From: Octopus vulgaris
Lineage: Eukaryota
NCBI GenBank assembly: GCA_951406725.2
Contig: OX597837.1
Span: 62,001-126,000, forward strand
Length of the DNA stretch: 64,000 bases
Reading direction: 5' to 3'
Part shown: piece by piece, positions 59 through 57,258 of the stretch
Layout of the letters: every line of letters starts with the position of its first letter
How positions within the stretch are numbered: position 1 is the stretch's first letter
Made by a program: the position numbers and the translations under genes
The notes under the pieces: generated by a model
What the model saw: the letters and a program-made list of their open reading frames with translations, nothing else
Database searches by the model: none
What the model was told of the DNA's origin: nothing

Positions 59-417
59 AGAGTAAAATCTATTTGCCAACGCAAAGTGGCAGTCCTGATT
101 AGAACGATGTTACTACTTTTTTTAGCCCCAGGAAAAAATCTTTTCCAGCTGGCTATCGACGCATAACTTCGTCCTTATACTACGAACAAGGGAGCTAATG
201 TCTCCACTCAGCCTTAAACGGTACCTGCGAACCAATGGTTTCTGGACGCAGCTGTGCGTCGATAGCCAGCTGGAAAAGGTGTTTTTCTGGGACTAAAAAT
301 GGTAGTAACATCGTCCTAATCAGGACTGCCACTTTACGTTGGCAAATAGACATTACTCTGTAGCACTGTTACTACTTATCTCTCGCTCAGAGATTTAAAA
401 CTAATCGTTTTCCTCTT
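59..417. mobile_element. Fold-back (inverted-repeat) insertion of the retrozyme/PLE-terminus family
   Basis: Arms 59-163 and 255-359 are reverse complements with a ~90-bp spacer. The right arm plus tail (GATAGCCAGCTGGAAAAGG...CTCGCTCAGAGATTT) resembles 4306-4441 and 45056-45191. Flanked by TA and CA repeats. Confidence 0.7.
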
Positions 418-1060: not shown

Positions 1061-1631
1061 CAATGTTTTTCAACCCCACCTTTTTTTTTTTTACATATGG
1101 ACTCCTTCAGTTCCTGTTTTGCTCAGATGGACCCTCAAAGCCATTCGATGTATAACAAAGTCACATATCTCTATAATTAAATATAATTAGGAAGTGTATA
1201 AAAAACTATTGCTTATGGCTATATTAATGTGGCTGTCCTCTAAGAGATGACGATATTGTTACTTCACCGCAGGAAAATATCTCTTCCAGCTGGTTTATTT
1301 ATTGCAAGTGGGAGATAACTCGAGCCACCCTAGTTCTGTGCGAAAAACACACTGAATAAACCAGCTGGAGGAGATATCTTCCTGGGGTTAAATGGCAGTA
1401 TCGTCATCTCTTAGAGGATAGCCACATTAAAGTGTCCATAAGCAATACTTTTTTTTTGCTTCGTGCACAGCTTCTATCTCGAACAGAGATTTTCTAACGG
1501 ACTAGTTTCCGAGTTATAAAAAACTAAAAATATTTTGTATGTTGTTTAACCGACTTATTGCAGATAACTTTTAACAACGAACCCTTACATGGAACCTGAA
1601 GGGCCATATGGACCCCGGTAGAGACTCACTG
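1061..1631. mobile_element. hAT-like MITE, interrupted by the insertion at 1209-1514
   Basis: Ends CAATGTTTTTCAACC / GGTAGAGACTCACTG. Imperfect 8-bp TSD GTTTAAAC/GCTTAAAG. Related to 51893-52155 in opposite orientation. Confidence 0.6.
1209..1514. mobile_element. Fold-back insertion of the retrozyme/PLE-terminus family with 12-bp TSD
   Basis: Arms 1209-1299 and 1355-1445. Shares CCAGCTGGAGGAGAT..CCTGGG and CTCGAACAGAGATTT with the 4183-4545 family. Exact TSD TATAAAAAACTA at 1197-1208 and 1515-1526. Confidence 0.8.
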
Positions 1632-3715: not shown

Positions 3716-3959
3716 AATGAAATACATAAGACAATCGTTTGTTCCTTTGTCATTCCATTTTCTTATTACCGCTCTGTATTCGACTGACGTTTCCTTCTGA
3801 AATATACGGATATAGAGTTCTGCACCAGGTTATTAGTCTCGAAATGCTTAACTGAATATATATATGTGTGTGTGTATATGTGTGTGGGGGTGGGTGCGTG
3901 TGTGTGTATATATCTATCTATGTAATAGTGTATAAAAATTTATACACGGAGCAAGATGA

Positions 3960-4182
3960 ATTACTCGTTTACATTACGGACGAACACCCCAGATAGTATA
4001 ACTGTAATATAAATGAAACTGTGAGCTTTGGGGGGCTCGTAAGCCATTTCATTTAATTCATTGTTAATAATTCATTTCATTTCATATCATCCTTTTTATT
4101 TTTATTATATGTACCCCATATCCTGTATTGTATTGTTATGTCCCCTCTTCATTCAGGCCATTGTGCCTATAATAAAGAGAAA
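3960..4182 (+). mobile_element. Probable 3' UTR remnant of a Tx1-like retrotransposon
   Basis: Ends TGTCCCCTC..CAGGCCATTGTGCCTATAATAAAGAGAAA, resembling the 3' end of the 7729-9364 element (TGTCCCG..CAGCCCTGTGTGGTTAATAAAGAAAC). Confidence 0.4.
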
Positions 4183-4545
4183 GGTGATTGTCGTGCGCTG
4201 ATAACGGGTCAATACCCAGAAACTGCAGTCTGTGCGTATCACTTAGGTTGACGAGGGAAGGATGACCTCCCTTTGCAAATACCGATAAGGCACAGAAAGT
4301 GTGTCAATAGCCAGCTGGAGAAGATGTTCTCCTGGGACTACAAGCTACAGTAACATCCACCCTTAGTGGTCAGCCATATTGAGATGGCAAATATACTTCA
4401 CATTGTCCTGCAGTTACTGTCTATACCTCGTTCAGAAATTTATTATTGCTTGTATACACTTTTTCAAGATCAGTGACGAAAAGTCACTGGCAAAAGGATA
4501 TAAATATTTGCATTGGGACCCTTCCATCGAAAACCGGTGATTGTC
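4183..4545 (+). mobile_element. Terminally redundant ~353-bp hammerhead-containing non-coding unit (non-LTR retrozyme-like or solo PLE pLTR)
   Basis: Hammerhead at 4184-4242. GGTGATTGTC recurs at 4183 and 4536. Close homologue at 44958-45201. Confidence 0.7.
4184..4242 (+). ncRNA. Type-I hammerhead ribozyme (core CUGAUAA; G8A probably inactivating)
   Basis: GTGAT..CGTGCG-CTGATAA-C-GGGT(CAAT)ACCC-A-GAAAC(TGCA)GTC-TGTGCG..ATCAC. Confidence 0.7.
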
Positions 4546-4683
4546 ATGTGCATCGTTGAAGTGTTGCTTTTTGCGGAGTTGGAGTTTATGATATTGTGAG
4601 TTGCAGAAATTGTTATTAGAAATTGTTGTTGTTGAAAGTACTATTGTAGTTGAATTTTGAAAATTATTTTGTAGCTACCCTTT

Positions 4684-5720
4684 GTGGGTATGCAAACAAC
4701 AAGTTACGCCCAGGCTGCAGGCAAAAGCCTGTCGGCCGACATGTTGCAGCTGAAAGACGTATTAATTGAGAAGGAAGGTTTGAATAAATATTTCGAAAAT
4801 TTCAAGGTGGGAGATTGCTTACGGATCACACCGCCGGAGGAAGACACAAAAAAAACGAGGGAAAAGATTATTGTATATAGAACGTGGAGTGTGGCCAACA
4901 AGAAAATAGAAGTGGCAGAAACAGACGACATTGAGGAATGTCTTACGGAAATTAAAGACAGAACGACCTTCTACGCAAGAGGAAGGAAGTTCGCCACCGT
5001 CGAGGTGCGGTTTGAAAGAGAGGAGGAGGCCAAGAGACACGCTACCATGATATTAAGAACAGCTAGGTGGGTGCTTCCTATTGTGGAAAACGAGCAACGA
5101 AGGTGAAAATAGGAAAGGTGCCGCCGGAGTTAGAGGTAGAGAGACTTGTAGCAGCTATAATTTATAATTGTAAGGATGATGTGGACATTCTAAAGGTTGA
5201 AAAATCGAGAGACGTCAACTGGTGGGATTATGGTGAGGAAGCACTGATACATATAACCCTGCCAGATTTGTACAACATTAAGGAAGAGTTAGTGCTCCCC
5301 GACGAAACCCGACTGAGAGTCGTGGTGGAGGGGAGACCACCAATATGTTATAACTGTAAAAGAATGGGACATATGCAAGCAAGGTGTCCCCTAAGAGAAA
5401 CGCAGGCAGAAGTGGAGGAAATGTACAGTGACGCAGCGAGAGCGGAGGAAGAAGAAAAAGAGGTAGAGGAAAAAGTTGAAGAAAAAACGGCAGAAAGAAA
5501 GAGAACACCACCAAAAAGCCCAATGAAAAGTTAAGTAGAAAATGAAGGAAGAAAGACAACAGTAAGTGGAAAAAGTACAGAGATTCGAAACCAGGAACTG
5601 AAGACAATGACAATGAGTGAAGAAGGTAAAACCAGAAAAGAGAAATGCGAAGAATGGATGAGGAAGGTGATGGAGAGAGTAAATCATGTAAAACAAACAG
5701 GACGACCTACGGGAGAGAAT
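4684..5720 (+). pseudogene. Non-LTR retrotransposon ORF1 (gag-like, CCHC zinc knuckle), frameshifted; probably Tx1/L1 clade
   Basis: ORFs 4684-5106 and 5067-5534 join by a frameshift. N-terminal SYAQAA motif, KVKIGKVPPE, CYNCKRMGHMQARC knuckle and charged tail. Confidence 0.8.
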
Positions 5721-5868
5721 GTAAGAAGGTTAATTTTTTACGAAAAGATATGGAGATTGAAAAAAGATTAACAAAAACAAAAGGAAATATACTTCACTCA
5801 CACACACACACACACATATATATATAAATATATATATATGTATGTATACATATATATATATACATATA

Positions 5869-16590: not shown

Positions 16591-16630
16591 AAGGAATGAC
16601 CGGTTTCGCATTCAGCTTTTCAAATTTCTT
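16591..16630 (-). ncRNA. Minimal hammerhead ribozyme, U3-A8 variant (left arm of the PLE)
   Basis: AAGAAAT-TTGAAAA-GC(TGAAT)GC-GAAAC(CG)GTC-ATTCCTT. Confidence 0.7.
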
Positions 16631-16711
16631 ACATCGTTGAGAAGTGTGAAGGAGAGTTCCAGATAAGGGGAGGTAATAAGTGATTTCTTCCGGTGTAAGG
16701 GAGATAATCGC

Positions 16712-18218
16712 TTAATATTTCTTGCCTTTTTTTTGGAGTGAGTTTCTCTGTATAAGAATGTTGGAATGGTTAAGTTTGGGCTTGTATTTTTCAATGAAGA
16801 ATGTTTCCTTGCTTAGTCTAATTTGTGTTGGTGTTCCGATAGCACATTGGTAAAATGGAAAGATTAAAAATTGTGGTAGTAGTTGCTTTGCGCATTTCTC
16901 AATGTGCTCACTAAAGGGTATCATTCTGTATTCTGGGAATGCAATCTTGTTGTCGATGCAGTGTGCATCTACGTCTGAGTGATAGTCCCGTGGACCCCAC
17001 GTAGTTTTGGTGGTAGCCCGAGCATTTTATGACATAAATTATGTTTTCAGAGGCACAAGTAAAATTAGATTTGATCATGAATTTCTGTTCCTCTTTGAAG
17101 AGGAATTCTGATCCTTCTAGCAGGTTTGGACATGTTGCATAGTTCGGTTTACCACATTTTTTTACTTTTGCATCCGTAATTTCAGAAAACAATTTTGCCT
17201 TTGTGAGAATCTTTTTAAGTGATTTAGGTTGTTTGTAGCTTTTAATGATTTGGTGTATGTTTAGAATTTCCTTTAATTTGGGGTCCTTATGAAGTATTGG
17301 TAAATTCTGAGTGATGATGGTGAAGGCTTCTTTGTTTCTGGGGTTGTATGTGGATATGTAAGGTAGTATTTTCGGGGAAGGTGTGTTGTTGTGTTGAACT
17401 TTTCTCAAAGTTTCTATGTTGATTTCTGTTGCACGTCTGATACCATCCTCTATGATTTGAGCTGGGTAATGTCTGACAATTAGGGTGTTTTTGAGTTCTT
17501 GTAGTCTAAAGTTCCTGGTATTTTGTTTTGACACTATTGTGCATATCCTTCTTGCAAGGTTGAAGGGGATGTTTGTTTTAGTGTGTCTTGGGTGGCATGA
17601 ATCAAAAAGTAGGTATTGTTTGGCGTCTGTGGCTTTGTAAAAAATGTCTGTTTCTATTTTAAGGTTAATTTTTTAAATTACTATATCCAAGAATGGGAGC
17701 TCCTTTTTGTTGTATTCCATTGTGAACTGTATATTTGGGTTTATGCTGTTCAATAGGTTTTTGAATTTTAGGAGTTTATCTGTGTTTTCATTCCAGAGTA
17801 TAAAACAATCGTCCAGGAATCGTTTCCAATTCTCTTTTATGTATTGAGAGAGGGGGTTTCCAAAGATTGATAAAGATTCCTGGTAAATGATTATTTCCAT
17901 GTATCCCATTGTTAAGTTCGCAATGACTGGTGCTGCCCTTGTACCCATAGTAATTCCGGATTTTTGACGGTAAAATGTATTGTCAAACATGAAGTGGTTA
18001 TTATGTAGGATGAATTCAATTGATTTAGTAATGAATTCTTTACTGATCCTTTTTGGTATTTCTTCCGGAAATTGGTCCAGCCAGAACTGTATTGCCTCTA
18101 GTCCATAATTATGAGGTATACTGGTATATAAGTTAACTACATCAAATGAAACCATGATTGTTACTTCCTTGGCTCTTTTTGGAAGGTGGTTTAACATATC
18201 TAAGTCATCTCTGATATG
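16712..18218 (-). pseudogene. PLE RT-GIY-YIG ORF fragment with one in-frame stop (17673-17675) and one frameshift (~16945)
   Basis: ORFs 17673-18299, 16911-17534 and 16712-16924. The frame continues through the TAA (LDIVI*KINLKIETDIF). Confidence 0.9.
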
Positions 18219-18715
18219 GCTAGAAGGATCAGAATTCCTCTTCAAAGAGGAACAGAAATTCAAGATCAAATCTAATTTTACTTGTGCCTCTGAAAACATA
18301 ATTTATGTCATAAAATGCTCGGGCTGCCACCAAAACTACGTGGGGTCCACGGAACTATCACTCAGATGTAGATGCACACTGCATTCCCAGATTGCATTCC
18401 CAGAATACAGAATGATACCCTTTAGTGAGCACATTGAGAAATGCGCAAAGCAACTACTACCACAATTTTTAATCTTTCCATTTTACCAATGTGCTATCGG
18501 AACACCAACACAAATTAGACTAAGCAAGGAAACATTCTTCATTGAAAAATACAAGCCCAAACTTAACCATTCCAACATTCTTATACAGAGAAACTCACTC
18601 CAAAAAAAAGGCAAGAAATATTAAGCGATTATCTCCCTTACACCGGAAGAAATCACTTATTACCTCCCCTTATCTGGAACTGTCCTTCACACTTCTCAAC
18701 GTAAACATAACGATG

Positions 18716-42463: not shown

Positions 42464-42567
42464 AACTACATCTGATGGACTGGTCGGTCACGTGATCACG
42501 TGATATACATACATATATATACATACATATACATATATATATATATATACATACATATATATATATG

Positions 42568-42597
<30 letters not shown>

Positions 42598-42598
<1 letters not shown>

Positions 42599-42903
42599 CA
42601 CGTGATCACGTGACCGACCAGTCCATCAGATGTAGTTACACATCGCTGGTCACAATGCGTTCGCATTGTTTTAGCCTTCGAATGACGCCATCCCGCTGGC
42701 TAAGCGAGCAGGCCAACAGAGGAAAGAGTGTGAGAAAGAGTGGTGAAAGAGTACAGCAGGGATCACCACCCCCTGCCGGAGCCTCGTGGAGCTTTTAGGT
42801 GTTTTCGCTCAATAAACACTCACAACGCCCGGTCTGGGAATCGAAACCGCGATCCTACGACCGCGAGTCCGTTGCCTTAACCACTGGGCCATTGCGCCTC
42901 CAC

Positions 42904-44957: not shown

Positions 44958-45328
<371 letters not shown>

Positions 45329-55395: not shown

Positions 55396-55996
55396 TATAT
55401 GTATGTGTCACAAATACACATACATATATACACACACAAATATATATATATACATACTTACACACACATACATACATGGACACACATACTTACATATGTA
55501 TACATACATGCATGCATACAAGTATGTGTATAGATGCACATTTTCCACATACACACACCCACATATATATAAGAATATGTTCATATAAATGTATGTATAT
55601 GCATAATTACATACATACACAAACAAGTAGCTACGCACTGATATATATAGAAAGTATATATAAAAAACATATTCATGTTGACAGATGCACACACACACAC
55701 ACATACACACATACACAAACACTCAAACATACATTTATATATGCATGTGTATATGTTTATACATATATATACACATGTGTGTGTCTAAGTGTGTATATAT
55801 ATATGCATGTGTGTGTGTGTAGAAGTCACACCGGAATAAATGTATAAGTAAACGAATATATTCCTGTAAACTTTGTGCCCAGTCAACCGTGAAAAGTATA
55901 ATCGTGATTCCATTTCGTAATGTTCGGGCAATTATATTATCCATTGCTTTATTTACCGTCAATCTATCTTTGTATGTCAGTCTGTCTGTCTGTTTG

Positions 55997-56091
<95 letters not shown>

Positions 56092-56110
56092 CTCTTTCTC
56101 TCTATCTATG

Positions 56111-56151
<41 letters not shown>

Positions 56152-56167
56152 ATCTATCTATCTATCT

Positions 56168-57258
56168 GATGCGCAGACACGCGCTGAGACTGCGACTTCT
56201 CCGGCTCTATGTAGACGACGGTGAACAGGTGTGGTCGCCGTTTGTGAGGCACGCTTTCCCGCAGCTCGTCTCCATGACCGAACTGCAGTCGTGGATCAAA
56301 AAGAGGCCGAGGAAGGGCGAATGGCACCGCGAGTGTCGCGTTGCTCTCAAGCAACTCTGCCGTCTCGGGTCGACCTTGATTGACTTCAACACAACCAAAG
56401 CATTCTATGGGGGATTAGTGGAGGGGAGGTACGACGACGATCTTGGGGCAAACCTGGGCGTCGACGAGGAATACCTGACCCGCCTGTTTGAAACGACTTT
56501 CGGGCCGGGACCTATGGACAACTTCCAAAGATCTCTAGCCTGGCGGTGCTACCGAGAAGCGCTACCCGTTCGGGATAAGCTCTATAAGCATGGCTCGAGA
56601 AACACGGGGCCGACCTGCCCGAGATGCGGGCAGAGCGACGAAACCATTTTGCACGCAATCGTGCAGTGTCCAACAATCTCCGACCTGTGAGCTTATGTCG
56701 AACGACTGCTGTCACGTGTGGGACGTGTCGGTTTACCAGCCGAGTCTATCGTTAATATAGTCACGCCTCCTTCCTTCAAACGGGAAGGAAGAGCTATTTT
56801 CATCATACTTGTGGCTATGGCGAAAGAATGTATCTGGTGGACGCGCCTGAAAGGATTAGATACAAACACTTTCCTCTCTGGTCAATCACTCATCAACTTC
56901 TTCAAGTATCACTTGAAGAGGAAAGTGAGAGTAGAGAGGCAAGTTTTGTCTAGTGAATGTTTTAAAAAAAGATGGGTGAATGTAGCAAGGATGGCGCGTA
57001 TGAATGACGAAGCCACCTTGAGTATGATCCTATGAACCGTAAAAATTAATACAGAGAGTTGCTTATTTGTAAAAAAAATATAACATGTGACTTCATTGAC
57101 CGAGGTTACCGTGGTCTTTTCCGTAGGCTTTTCTTTCCACGGGTAAAACACACCTGTCTTCCCCTTTACACTTTATATTGACATTTCTGTGATAACGATC
57201 CCTATTGATCGATTTTTTCCTTTTGCTTTTATTTTTATACCCCCGCCCTTTTTTCCCC
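56168..57258 (+). mobile_element. Tx1/L1-clade retrotransposon, second 5'-truncated copy
   Basis: Nearly identical to ~8143-9225, with intact zf-RVT TCPRCGQSDETILHAIVQC and a premature TGA at 56688-56690. The 5' junction lies in (ATCT)n. Confidence 0.92.

Follow-up and report, generated by a model that had tools for sequence, protein, structure and literature searches.

We describe a family of 353-bp hammerhead repeats in the genome of Octopus vulgaris and a lineage of LINE retrotransposons that inserts at one particular site in these repeats, one subfamily of which also inserts at position +1 of U2 snRNA genes. The repeat unit is very probably a retrozyme or a non-autonomous Penelope-like element (PLE), and the structure of its copies suggests that it is likely copied by Penelope-type enzymes. 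That the LINE targets the retrozyme site is nearly certain, and a common kind of promoter is the likely reason why it hits both retrozymes and U2 +1.

Retrozymes of 350–390 bp are known from mussel, and further metazoan non-LTR retrozymes have been described in axolotl (330/350 bp) and coral (PMC7229834), which makes the octopus unit alone less novel than first thought; by itself it is one more mollusc retrozyme, and it is the surroundings that carry the news. Hallmarks of PLEs include partial tandems, inverted 5' copies and an optional tail (PMC8557442, section 6). Target-specific LINEs of the Tx1 group are also known, i.e., Keno (in U2), Tx1 (in Tx1D), and Tx1-Mar and SINEU-3 (in Mariner-N4) (PMC4494074).

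A composite locus in the window

The window, i.e., the whole stretch of 64,000 nucleotides analysed here, contains at 3949–5797 a composite of retrozyme sequence and two LINE derivatives that carry ORF1 only, all on the plus strand. It begins with the 3' end of gB, a 5'-truncated ORF1-only element (3949–4182) that terminates in GCCTATAATAAAGAGAAA and is 92–95% identical to the 3' UTR following the gB reading frame in loci L033, L034, L038 and L064; no retrozyme half is found to the left of it at this locus. The retrozyme monomer of 353 bp occupies 4183–4535, as delimited by its period, family membership and junctions, and has no stop-to-stop frame longer than 80 codons, in agreement with the original prediction of a unit that encodes no protein. 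The monomer contains a type I hammerhead (4184–4242), recognized by its sequence and by covariation across families, with a predicted cut after 4230. Further downstream lie an ATCAGTG motif that resembles the proximal sequence element (PSE) of U1/U2 genes (4469–4489, a putative promoter core located with a U1/U2-trained matrix) and the ATCG at 4526–4529, which is the joint of autonomous LINE families in other copies and the predicted transcription start. Both internal hairpins noticed earlier are present (4471–4489 and 4255–4271), the former being the CAGTGAC/GTCACTG hairpin that the motif at 4469 overlaps, and the fold of the monomer (z = -2.88) is matched in stability by 0 of 100 shuffles.

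The next monomer starts at 4536–4545 and is interrupted by gA, another ORF1-only LINE derivative (4546–5784; ATG at 4690, CCHC knuckle at about 5343–5390), whose reading frame is broken in the window and whose 3' part is deleted, homology to the copy in L036 ending at 5784. Exactly where this homology stops, retrozyme positions 207–219 follow (5785–5797) and then a (CA)n repeat; this exact match of 13 nt, which alone is not significant (E = 0.79), coincides with the copy end in L139 and L160 and is likely the right end of the whole composite insertion. Given this usual retrozyme 3' end with a CA repeat and the lack of a target half before 3949, the locus likely represents one composite copied in the PLE manner. 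L036 and L163/L210, in which composites are found in inverted copies, also point to composites moving as units.

As predicted, GGTGATTGTC occurs at 4183, 4536 and 44962, and it has no other occurrence in the window. The prediction had explained its repetition as the unit re-entering its own start and had denied that it is a target-site duplication. A next monomer does start at 4536, but the explanation is incomplete because the 10-mer is also a target-site duplication of the LINE derivatives, so the denial was wrong: 4536–4545 is the left-hand duplication of gA, and the first 10 nt of the monomer (4183–4192) are the right-hand duplication of the sister element gB ending at 4182. This dual reading of the 10-mer at 4536 follows from the ORF1-only copies elsewhere, which in several different hammerhead families are flanked by 10–20-bp duplications that include the 5' strand of helix I; the same 10-mer stands at both ends of gA in L036, L037, L038 and L032, in some cases with one mismatch. 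The prediction had overlooked the zinc-knuckle ORF1 element that begins at the right-hand edge of the unit and, with it, the targeted insertion that underlies it.

The second retrozyme copy in the window (44958–45206, plus strand) is 5'-truncated, flanked by TA repeats and 82% identical to the first with a 29-nt gap, and its CTGATGA core is intact. It does hold the predicted end-to-start junction, to the extent of a few bases (AACC). Contigs from four runs that we guess to be RNA cover the unit, mostly 4250–4435, a kind of evidence that cannot show transcription, ends, strand or circles.

A variant hammerhead with covarying stems

In the hammerhead at 4184–4242, helix I (4192–4197/4231–4236, extended by 4184–4188/4238–4242) is joined to the core CTGATAA (4198–4204), helix II (4206–4209/4214–4217), GAAA (4219–4222) and a helix III of 2 bp with a palindromic TGCA loop, and the GTC triplet ends at 4230. 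The predicted architecture is therefore present, though the prediction missed the variant C.A form of the family described below and the replacement of the conserved G in this copy (G8A, A at 4203), which is accompanied by C1.1U (4231). A change at G8 should cripple the ribozyme according to established hammerhead chemistry, and the hammerhead of the copy at 4183 is likely impaired. Canonical CUGANGA and GAAA cores with an NUH triplet are present in other family copies, e.g., L021 and the window copy at 44977. The helices of the family (6 bp in helix I, 4 bp in helix II, 1–2 bp in helix III, with a palindromic loop) fit the canonical metazoan type I hammerhead, for which such helix lengths and a palindromic helix III loop have been described (PMC4209133).

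For the comparison across families we collected 77 distinct motifs, picked by core and context and not by pairing. The base of helix II (the G10.1–C11.1 position) is C.A in 50 of them and G–C in 9, and since the canonical pair is missing in the main form, the hammerhead of this family is a variant form. Helix I is paired in 407 of 462 cells, compared to a mean of 331 and a maximum of 350 in 500 shuffles. Helix II has 12 double changes among 23 sequences, a count reached by 0 of 500 shuffles, with the qualification that most of the 23 were pre-selected for pairing and that kinship inflates such scores. The stems of the type I hammerhead covary across retrozyme families. The Rfam hammerhead model has no match in the unit at E ≤ 10, nor at the gathering score in 20 loci, for which the C.A at the base of helix II may be responsible. 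The isolated 63-nt hammerhead folds no better than shuffled sequences and does not form helix III.

Copies across the genome and their likely mode of copying

An exact 22-mer of the unit has 382 matches genome-wide compared to 0 for the reversed control, and the 353-bp period holds genome-wide. The DNA search of the genome scored 40 of 4290 first-look candidates, and the first 30 matches listed make up our family sample of 28 loci (L138 and L143 duplicate L137 and L142 and were dropped). In all 28 loci the 3' ends fall at two sites about 50 nt apart, at unit position 212–226 (15 loci) or 258–284 (13 loci); an inverted 5' piece is found in 12/28, and 12/28 run into a TA or CA repeat. The end-to-start junction is crossed by at least 50 nt in 15 loci, 14 of which include the PSE-like motif. 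Copies with two hammerheads (L004, L013, L142) have seamless unit junctions; arrays longer than about two units do not occur among the loci examined, which are mostly dispersed copies of 0.6–2 units. Clustering of 5' ends at the cleavage site was considered and ruled out, as the sampled copies have none. As the copies read across the cleavage site and comprise up to about two units, their template was either a circle or an uncleaved multimer, the genome being compatible with both.

Partial tandems, the inverted 5' piece, two 3' ends and microsatellite targets are PLE hallmarks. A PLE reading frame contiguous with the retrozyme is found in 0/28 sampled loci, and unrelated PLE pieces lie within 1.5 kb in 2. 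One young PLE family is abundant in the genome; its open frames run to about 811 codons, its copies have TA targets and a minimal hammerhead-like motif, and their 3' ends fall at two sites separated by about 40 nt. The unit has no sequence match to this family in 30 PLE loci (the one hit is a separate neighbouring copy), so the case for mobilisation by PLE enzymes is drawn from structure; on the strength of these 30 loci the family, of which the window contains a member, was rejected as the sequence parent of the unit.

The original reading of the unit as a retrozyme or a non-autonomous PLE is supported by tandem and permuted copies, the covarying hammerhead and PLE-type ends. Permuted and tandem copies of about 353 bp with no adjacent RT frame, for which a genome search had been proposed, do exist, and the 28 sampled loci do not show the pattern that would speak against this reading, i.e., copies that always form the 3' end of a coding PLE and have neither permutations nor tandems.

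At least five further hammerhead repeat families (L042, L064, L077, L105, L106, L116, L121, L198) have a helix I of different sequence, and a CAGTG hairpin is conserved upstream. Ahead of a retrozyme copy in L007, positions 1923–2714 contain about 16 tandem repeats of 50 bp that consist of the hammerhead's 5' part (unit 1–42).

A LINE lineage that targets the retrozymes

The 3' end of an autonomous LINE was found in 2 of the 28 sampled retrozyme loci. A full-length copy with ORF1 and ORF2 frames is present in L225; L129 contains APE and RT, and homologs of the L225 element carry PF03372, PF00078 and PF13966. The best PDB match of this group is human L1 ORF2p (E = 9e-62, versus 1e-24 for R2). 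The LINE has the architecture of the L1/Tx1 group, i.e., an ORF1 with CCHC and an ORF2 with APE, RT and zf-RVT, and the label Tx1 is given to it provisionally, by this architecture.

We searched the genome with the 3' end of LINE family A, using a query that included no target sequence, and of 569 candidates 40 were scored and the top 30 used. All 30 end at the retrozyme ATCG site just upstream of the ribozyme; in 28 the sequence that comes next is retrozyme sequence of several families, and in 2 it is a target stub and another LINE copy. The LINE ends are on average 97% identical, compared to 76% for the targets, and 0 of 378 target pairs reach 97% (L214 and L221, in which another LINE follows, were left out of the comparison). 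The same independence test was used by Kojima for SINEU-3 (PMC4494074). A 14-bp duplication flanks both the full-length copy in L225 and a truncated copy in L212, and a duplication also accompanies the truncated copy in L199, which lies in a different family of retrozymes. The family A insertions at retrozymes are independent and targeted. The published mark for a target-specific LINE is more than 20% of flanks (PMC4494074), and the shared flank is found in 30/30 copies of family A, 27/30 of family B (see below) and 22/98 ORF1-only ends.

The ORF1-only elements are related to this LINE. The gA repeat is about 1.5 kb long, has no ORF2 and contains an unbroken frame of 436 codons in L036; zf-CCHC is detected in the gA reading frame of the window (E = 3.5e-5), and gA ORF1 is 30% identical to ORF1 of the autonomous LINE in L225 (E = 9e-28). 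A word search with ORF1 returned one protein of Octopus bimaculoides (47%), the Atlas offered CCHC/ZCCHC3-like proteins as leads (at about 0.9), and nothing significant was found in the PDB. Genome-wide, TGAHGA follows 22 of 98 exact ORF1-only 3' ends (two duplicates having been left out), where about 3 are expected. Among the first 30 ends, 13 are at hammerhead cores, and about 7 are in unrelated sequence, where they have duplications of their own. The ORF1-only elements are much less site-specific than the autonomous LINE.

One ORF1-only element (L059/L246; G000:C10:40599164, minus strand) has a 5' end that equals the first ~22 bases of U1 snRNA. Several ORF1-only families form head-to-tail arrays with a period of about 1.8–1.9 kb (L126, L128–L131, e.g., G000:C14:37736000-37745999), some of which end in a full APE-RT LINE, and they share an upstream element with a TATA-like word. 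An snRNA target for the array-forming family behind this TATA-like element was ruled out, there being no Rfam match.

U1 and U2 start sites and a candidate promoter

A sister LINE is joined at +1 in 2 of 25 U2 genes, U2 itself beginning with ATCG, and in 1 of the 8 U1 genes examined, where the joint reads ATAC rather than ATCG. With the 3' end of the U2-linked LINE (family B) as the query, 30 copies were classified: 19 at hammerheads, 3 at the hammerhead site in tandem, 5 at U2 +1 and 3 elsewhere. A single LINE subfamily uses both retrozymes (22/30) and U2 +1 (5/30). Two of the five U2 insertions are the loci of discovery, and as four of the five lie in one U2 cluster, as few as two may be independent. 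At the joint, U2 and the retrozymes have TT(T/C)ATCG in common. A cluster of about 25 U1-start motifs lies at G000:C18:48969167-49206631, and those checked are U1 genes.

The motif ATCAGT (with at most one mismatch) is located at -57 to -61 in 30/30 uninterrupted U1/U2 promoters and at -58/-59 in 3/3 family A sites checked. Only offsets of family A were used, for the reason that anchors of ORF1-only elements were picked by eye and their offsets are scattered. The training promoters exclude U2 loci L257 and L264 and one U1 locus, in which a LINE replaces the promoter. The best site of the resulting matrix on either strand of the monomer is 4469, 57 nt before A4526, with a score of 9.4 versus 17–23 for training sites, which is reached by 20 of 300 shuffles. 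Similarity over 70 nt between the window family and U1 is at chance level (226/300 shuffles), and between U1 and U2 it is weak, too. ATCAGTG is an arm of a hairpin and could be retained for RNA structure. We consider it slightly better than an even bet that the promoter guides LINE insertion. Use of an snRNA promoter by the newt hammerhead satellite has been reported, at second hand, in PMC2220036.

Proposed mechanism and alternatives

We favour, with moderate confidence, an account in which the retrozyme is transcribed from an internal U1/U2-type promoter, its hammerhead processes the RNA, and PLE enzymes make the new copies; the LINE, in this account, is guided to the +1 of such promoters, leaving the ribozyme whole and borrowing the promoter. 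ATCAGTG at -57 would drive transcription from the ATCG, and the hammerhead would cleave read-through RNA, perhaps in the form of a dimer, after which circles may form. A PLE enzyme would prime at unit position ~220 or ~270 and copy more than one unit, so that the external promoter would again precede the start; circular or tandem templates would thus have a reason, namely that an external promoter must travel along. The LINE would nick at +1, duplicate 10–20 bp, leave the downstream hammerhead whole and borrow the upstream promoter, and the composite could then be moved by the PLE machinery, as is likely for 3949–5797 of the window. A broader formulation, to which we give an even chance, is that retrozymes mimic snRNA genes by a U1/U2-type promoter inside the repeat, regenerated via circular or tandem templates, and that a LINE lineage tethers to the snRNA transcription complex and integrates at +1, the result being nested parasites. 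If so, there is a chain of parasites in which Penelope enzymes move retrozymes, LINEs colonise the starts of retrozymes and snRNA genes, and ORF1-only elements ride both.

Since U2 and the retrozymes both have TT(T/C)ATCG at the site, the LINE endonuclease could itself read the DNA around it, in which case the promoter match would be incidental and the retrozyme and its targeting unchanged. ATCG at the joint is common to U2 and most retrozyme families, and target choice of Tx1 is credited to the endonuclease (PMC4494074). However, the targets have an average identity of 76% and only 4–7 bases in common, a word of that length should, by our estimate (not a count), occur far too often in 2.8 Gb for a result of 30/30, and the U1 joint is ATAC, albeit in a different LINE subfamily; we regard direct reading as unlikely. 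An alternative to the circular part of our account, compatible with the LINE-targeting result, is that the unit is a linear non-autonomous PLE with a weak or vestigial hammerhead and no circle, its partial tandems being due to jumps between templates or to read-through RNA that was left uncleaved. The non-canonical C.A pair fits a weak hammerhead, copies end at ~220/270 and not at the cut site, where 5' ends do not cluster either, and of nine predicted dimers of Xenopus retrozymes, eight failed to cleave in vitro (bioRxiv 10.64898/2026.07.22.740005). Against this stand the compensatory changes that preserve both stems across families, the seamless junctions in copies of up to about two units, and the case of an axolotl hammerhead whose helix II is likewise mismatched at its base and which cleaves, better as a dimer, and gives circles (PMC7229834). 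We hold this alternative to be doubtful, if somewhat less so than direct reading by the endonuclease.

The association of the LINE with retrozymes might also be due to hitchhiking, i.e., to a single LINE insertion, or a handful of them, that multiplied along with the retrozyme; alternatively, the unit might be the terminal repeat of a larger PLE that codes for the zinc knuckle. Composites do move as units, judging by the inverted copies and by the window locus with its missing left target half, and a Chara PLE with a zf-CCHC ORF and a hammerhead is known (PMC8557442). Yet the targets come from several families and are far more diverged than the LINEs, an identity gap that largely refutes hitchhiking as the sole cause; truncated LINE copies keep both target halves and the duplication, the same LINE is present in U2 genes, and ORF1 of the ORF1-only element is homologous to that of the APE-RT LINE. 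This explanation is very improbable.

Relation to known elements

Each component has been described before: retrozymes and their links to PLEs, half-L1 elements, and Tx1 elements that target transposons or snRNA genes. We did not find LINE targeting of retrozymes, or a +1 site shared by retrozymes and U2, in the literature; Repbase, which lay outside the search, may contain these families. The parts of the octopus repeat paper (PMC13282606) available to us mention neither hammerheads nor retrozymes, and the supplements of PMC7229834 and of the Xenopus study (bioRxiv 10.64898/2026.07.22.740005) may contain cephalopod ones. New with respect to the literature consulted, where it is treated as a hypothesis, are direct genomic signs of Penelope-type enzymes moving retrozymes; to these we add the putative promoter and transcription start of an animal retrozyme, and a LINE subfamily with two unrelated targets at equal distance from a common motif. 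If promoter tethering is true, this is position-guided LINE integration at U1/U2-type promoters, which we did not find in print.

The octopus unit resembles metazoan non-LTR retrozymes, as far as they are covered by the consulted parts of PMC7229834, in size, in its non-coding tandem unit, in the type I hammerhead with a short helix III and in the coexistence of PLEs with minimal hammerheads. It differs from them in its mostly dispersed copies of 0.6–2 units, PLE-type ends, C.A at the base of helix II, candidate U1/U2-type promoter and role as a LINE target, and in being known here from DNA alone. With non-autonomous PLEs it shares 5' truncation, partial tandems, an inverted 5' piece, an optional tail and TA-repeat targets (PMC8557442; bioRxiv 10.64898/2026.07.22.740005), but its sequence does not match that of the single autonomous PLE family compared (30 loci). 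Like the target-specific Tx1 elements, the octopus lineage is an APE-RT LINE that inserts into snRNA genes and other mobile elements, with tandem insertions around the duplication, snRNA-derived heads and non-autonomous followers (PMC4494074). In contrast to the Tx1 elements in the part of that paper used here, a single octopus subfamily uses U2 as well as the unrelated retrozymes, in both cases at the same distance from a common upstream motif, and the target is a ribozyme element whose ribozyme is left whole. The ORF1-only elements recall HAL1 (half-L1) in their LINE-like 3' end and duplications (PMC5753468, consulted in part), from which they differ in their origin from the mollusc L1/Tx1 group, zinc-knuckle ORF1, partial target preference and head-to-tail arrays. 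Newt satellite 2 is likewise a hammerhead repeat with a reported, second-hand snRNA promoter (PMC2220036, in the portion consulted); the octopus promoter, unlike that one, is predicted, and we found no LINE targeting for the newt repeat. A further parallel concerns integration at promoters of Pol III genes. Ty3 and TRE5-A are tethered there via tRNA-gene factors, so that their position is set relative to a promoter and not by a long sequence, as we propose here, the difference being that the promoter class in octopus would be U1/U2.

Other features of the window

The repeat search of the window was dominated by microsatellites, and Rfam over the window returned only microsatellite-driven miRNA noise. 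Older relatives (~70%) of the central part of the unit form inverted pairs at 62–163 (minus) with 254–397 (plus) and at 1218–1293 (minus) with 1361–1428 (plus). A PLE of the young ~811-codon family lies at 16635–18701, with RT and GIY-YIG frames on the minus strand. Its inverted 5' copy is 313 nt long, and its minimal hammerhead-like motif lies near 16615. A C-terminal zf-RVT fragment of an L1/Tx1-group ORF2 is located at 55908–56687, and a long near-perfect inverted repeat with GTCACGTGATCACGTG ends and a TA-rich core at 42477–42626.
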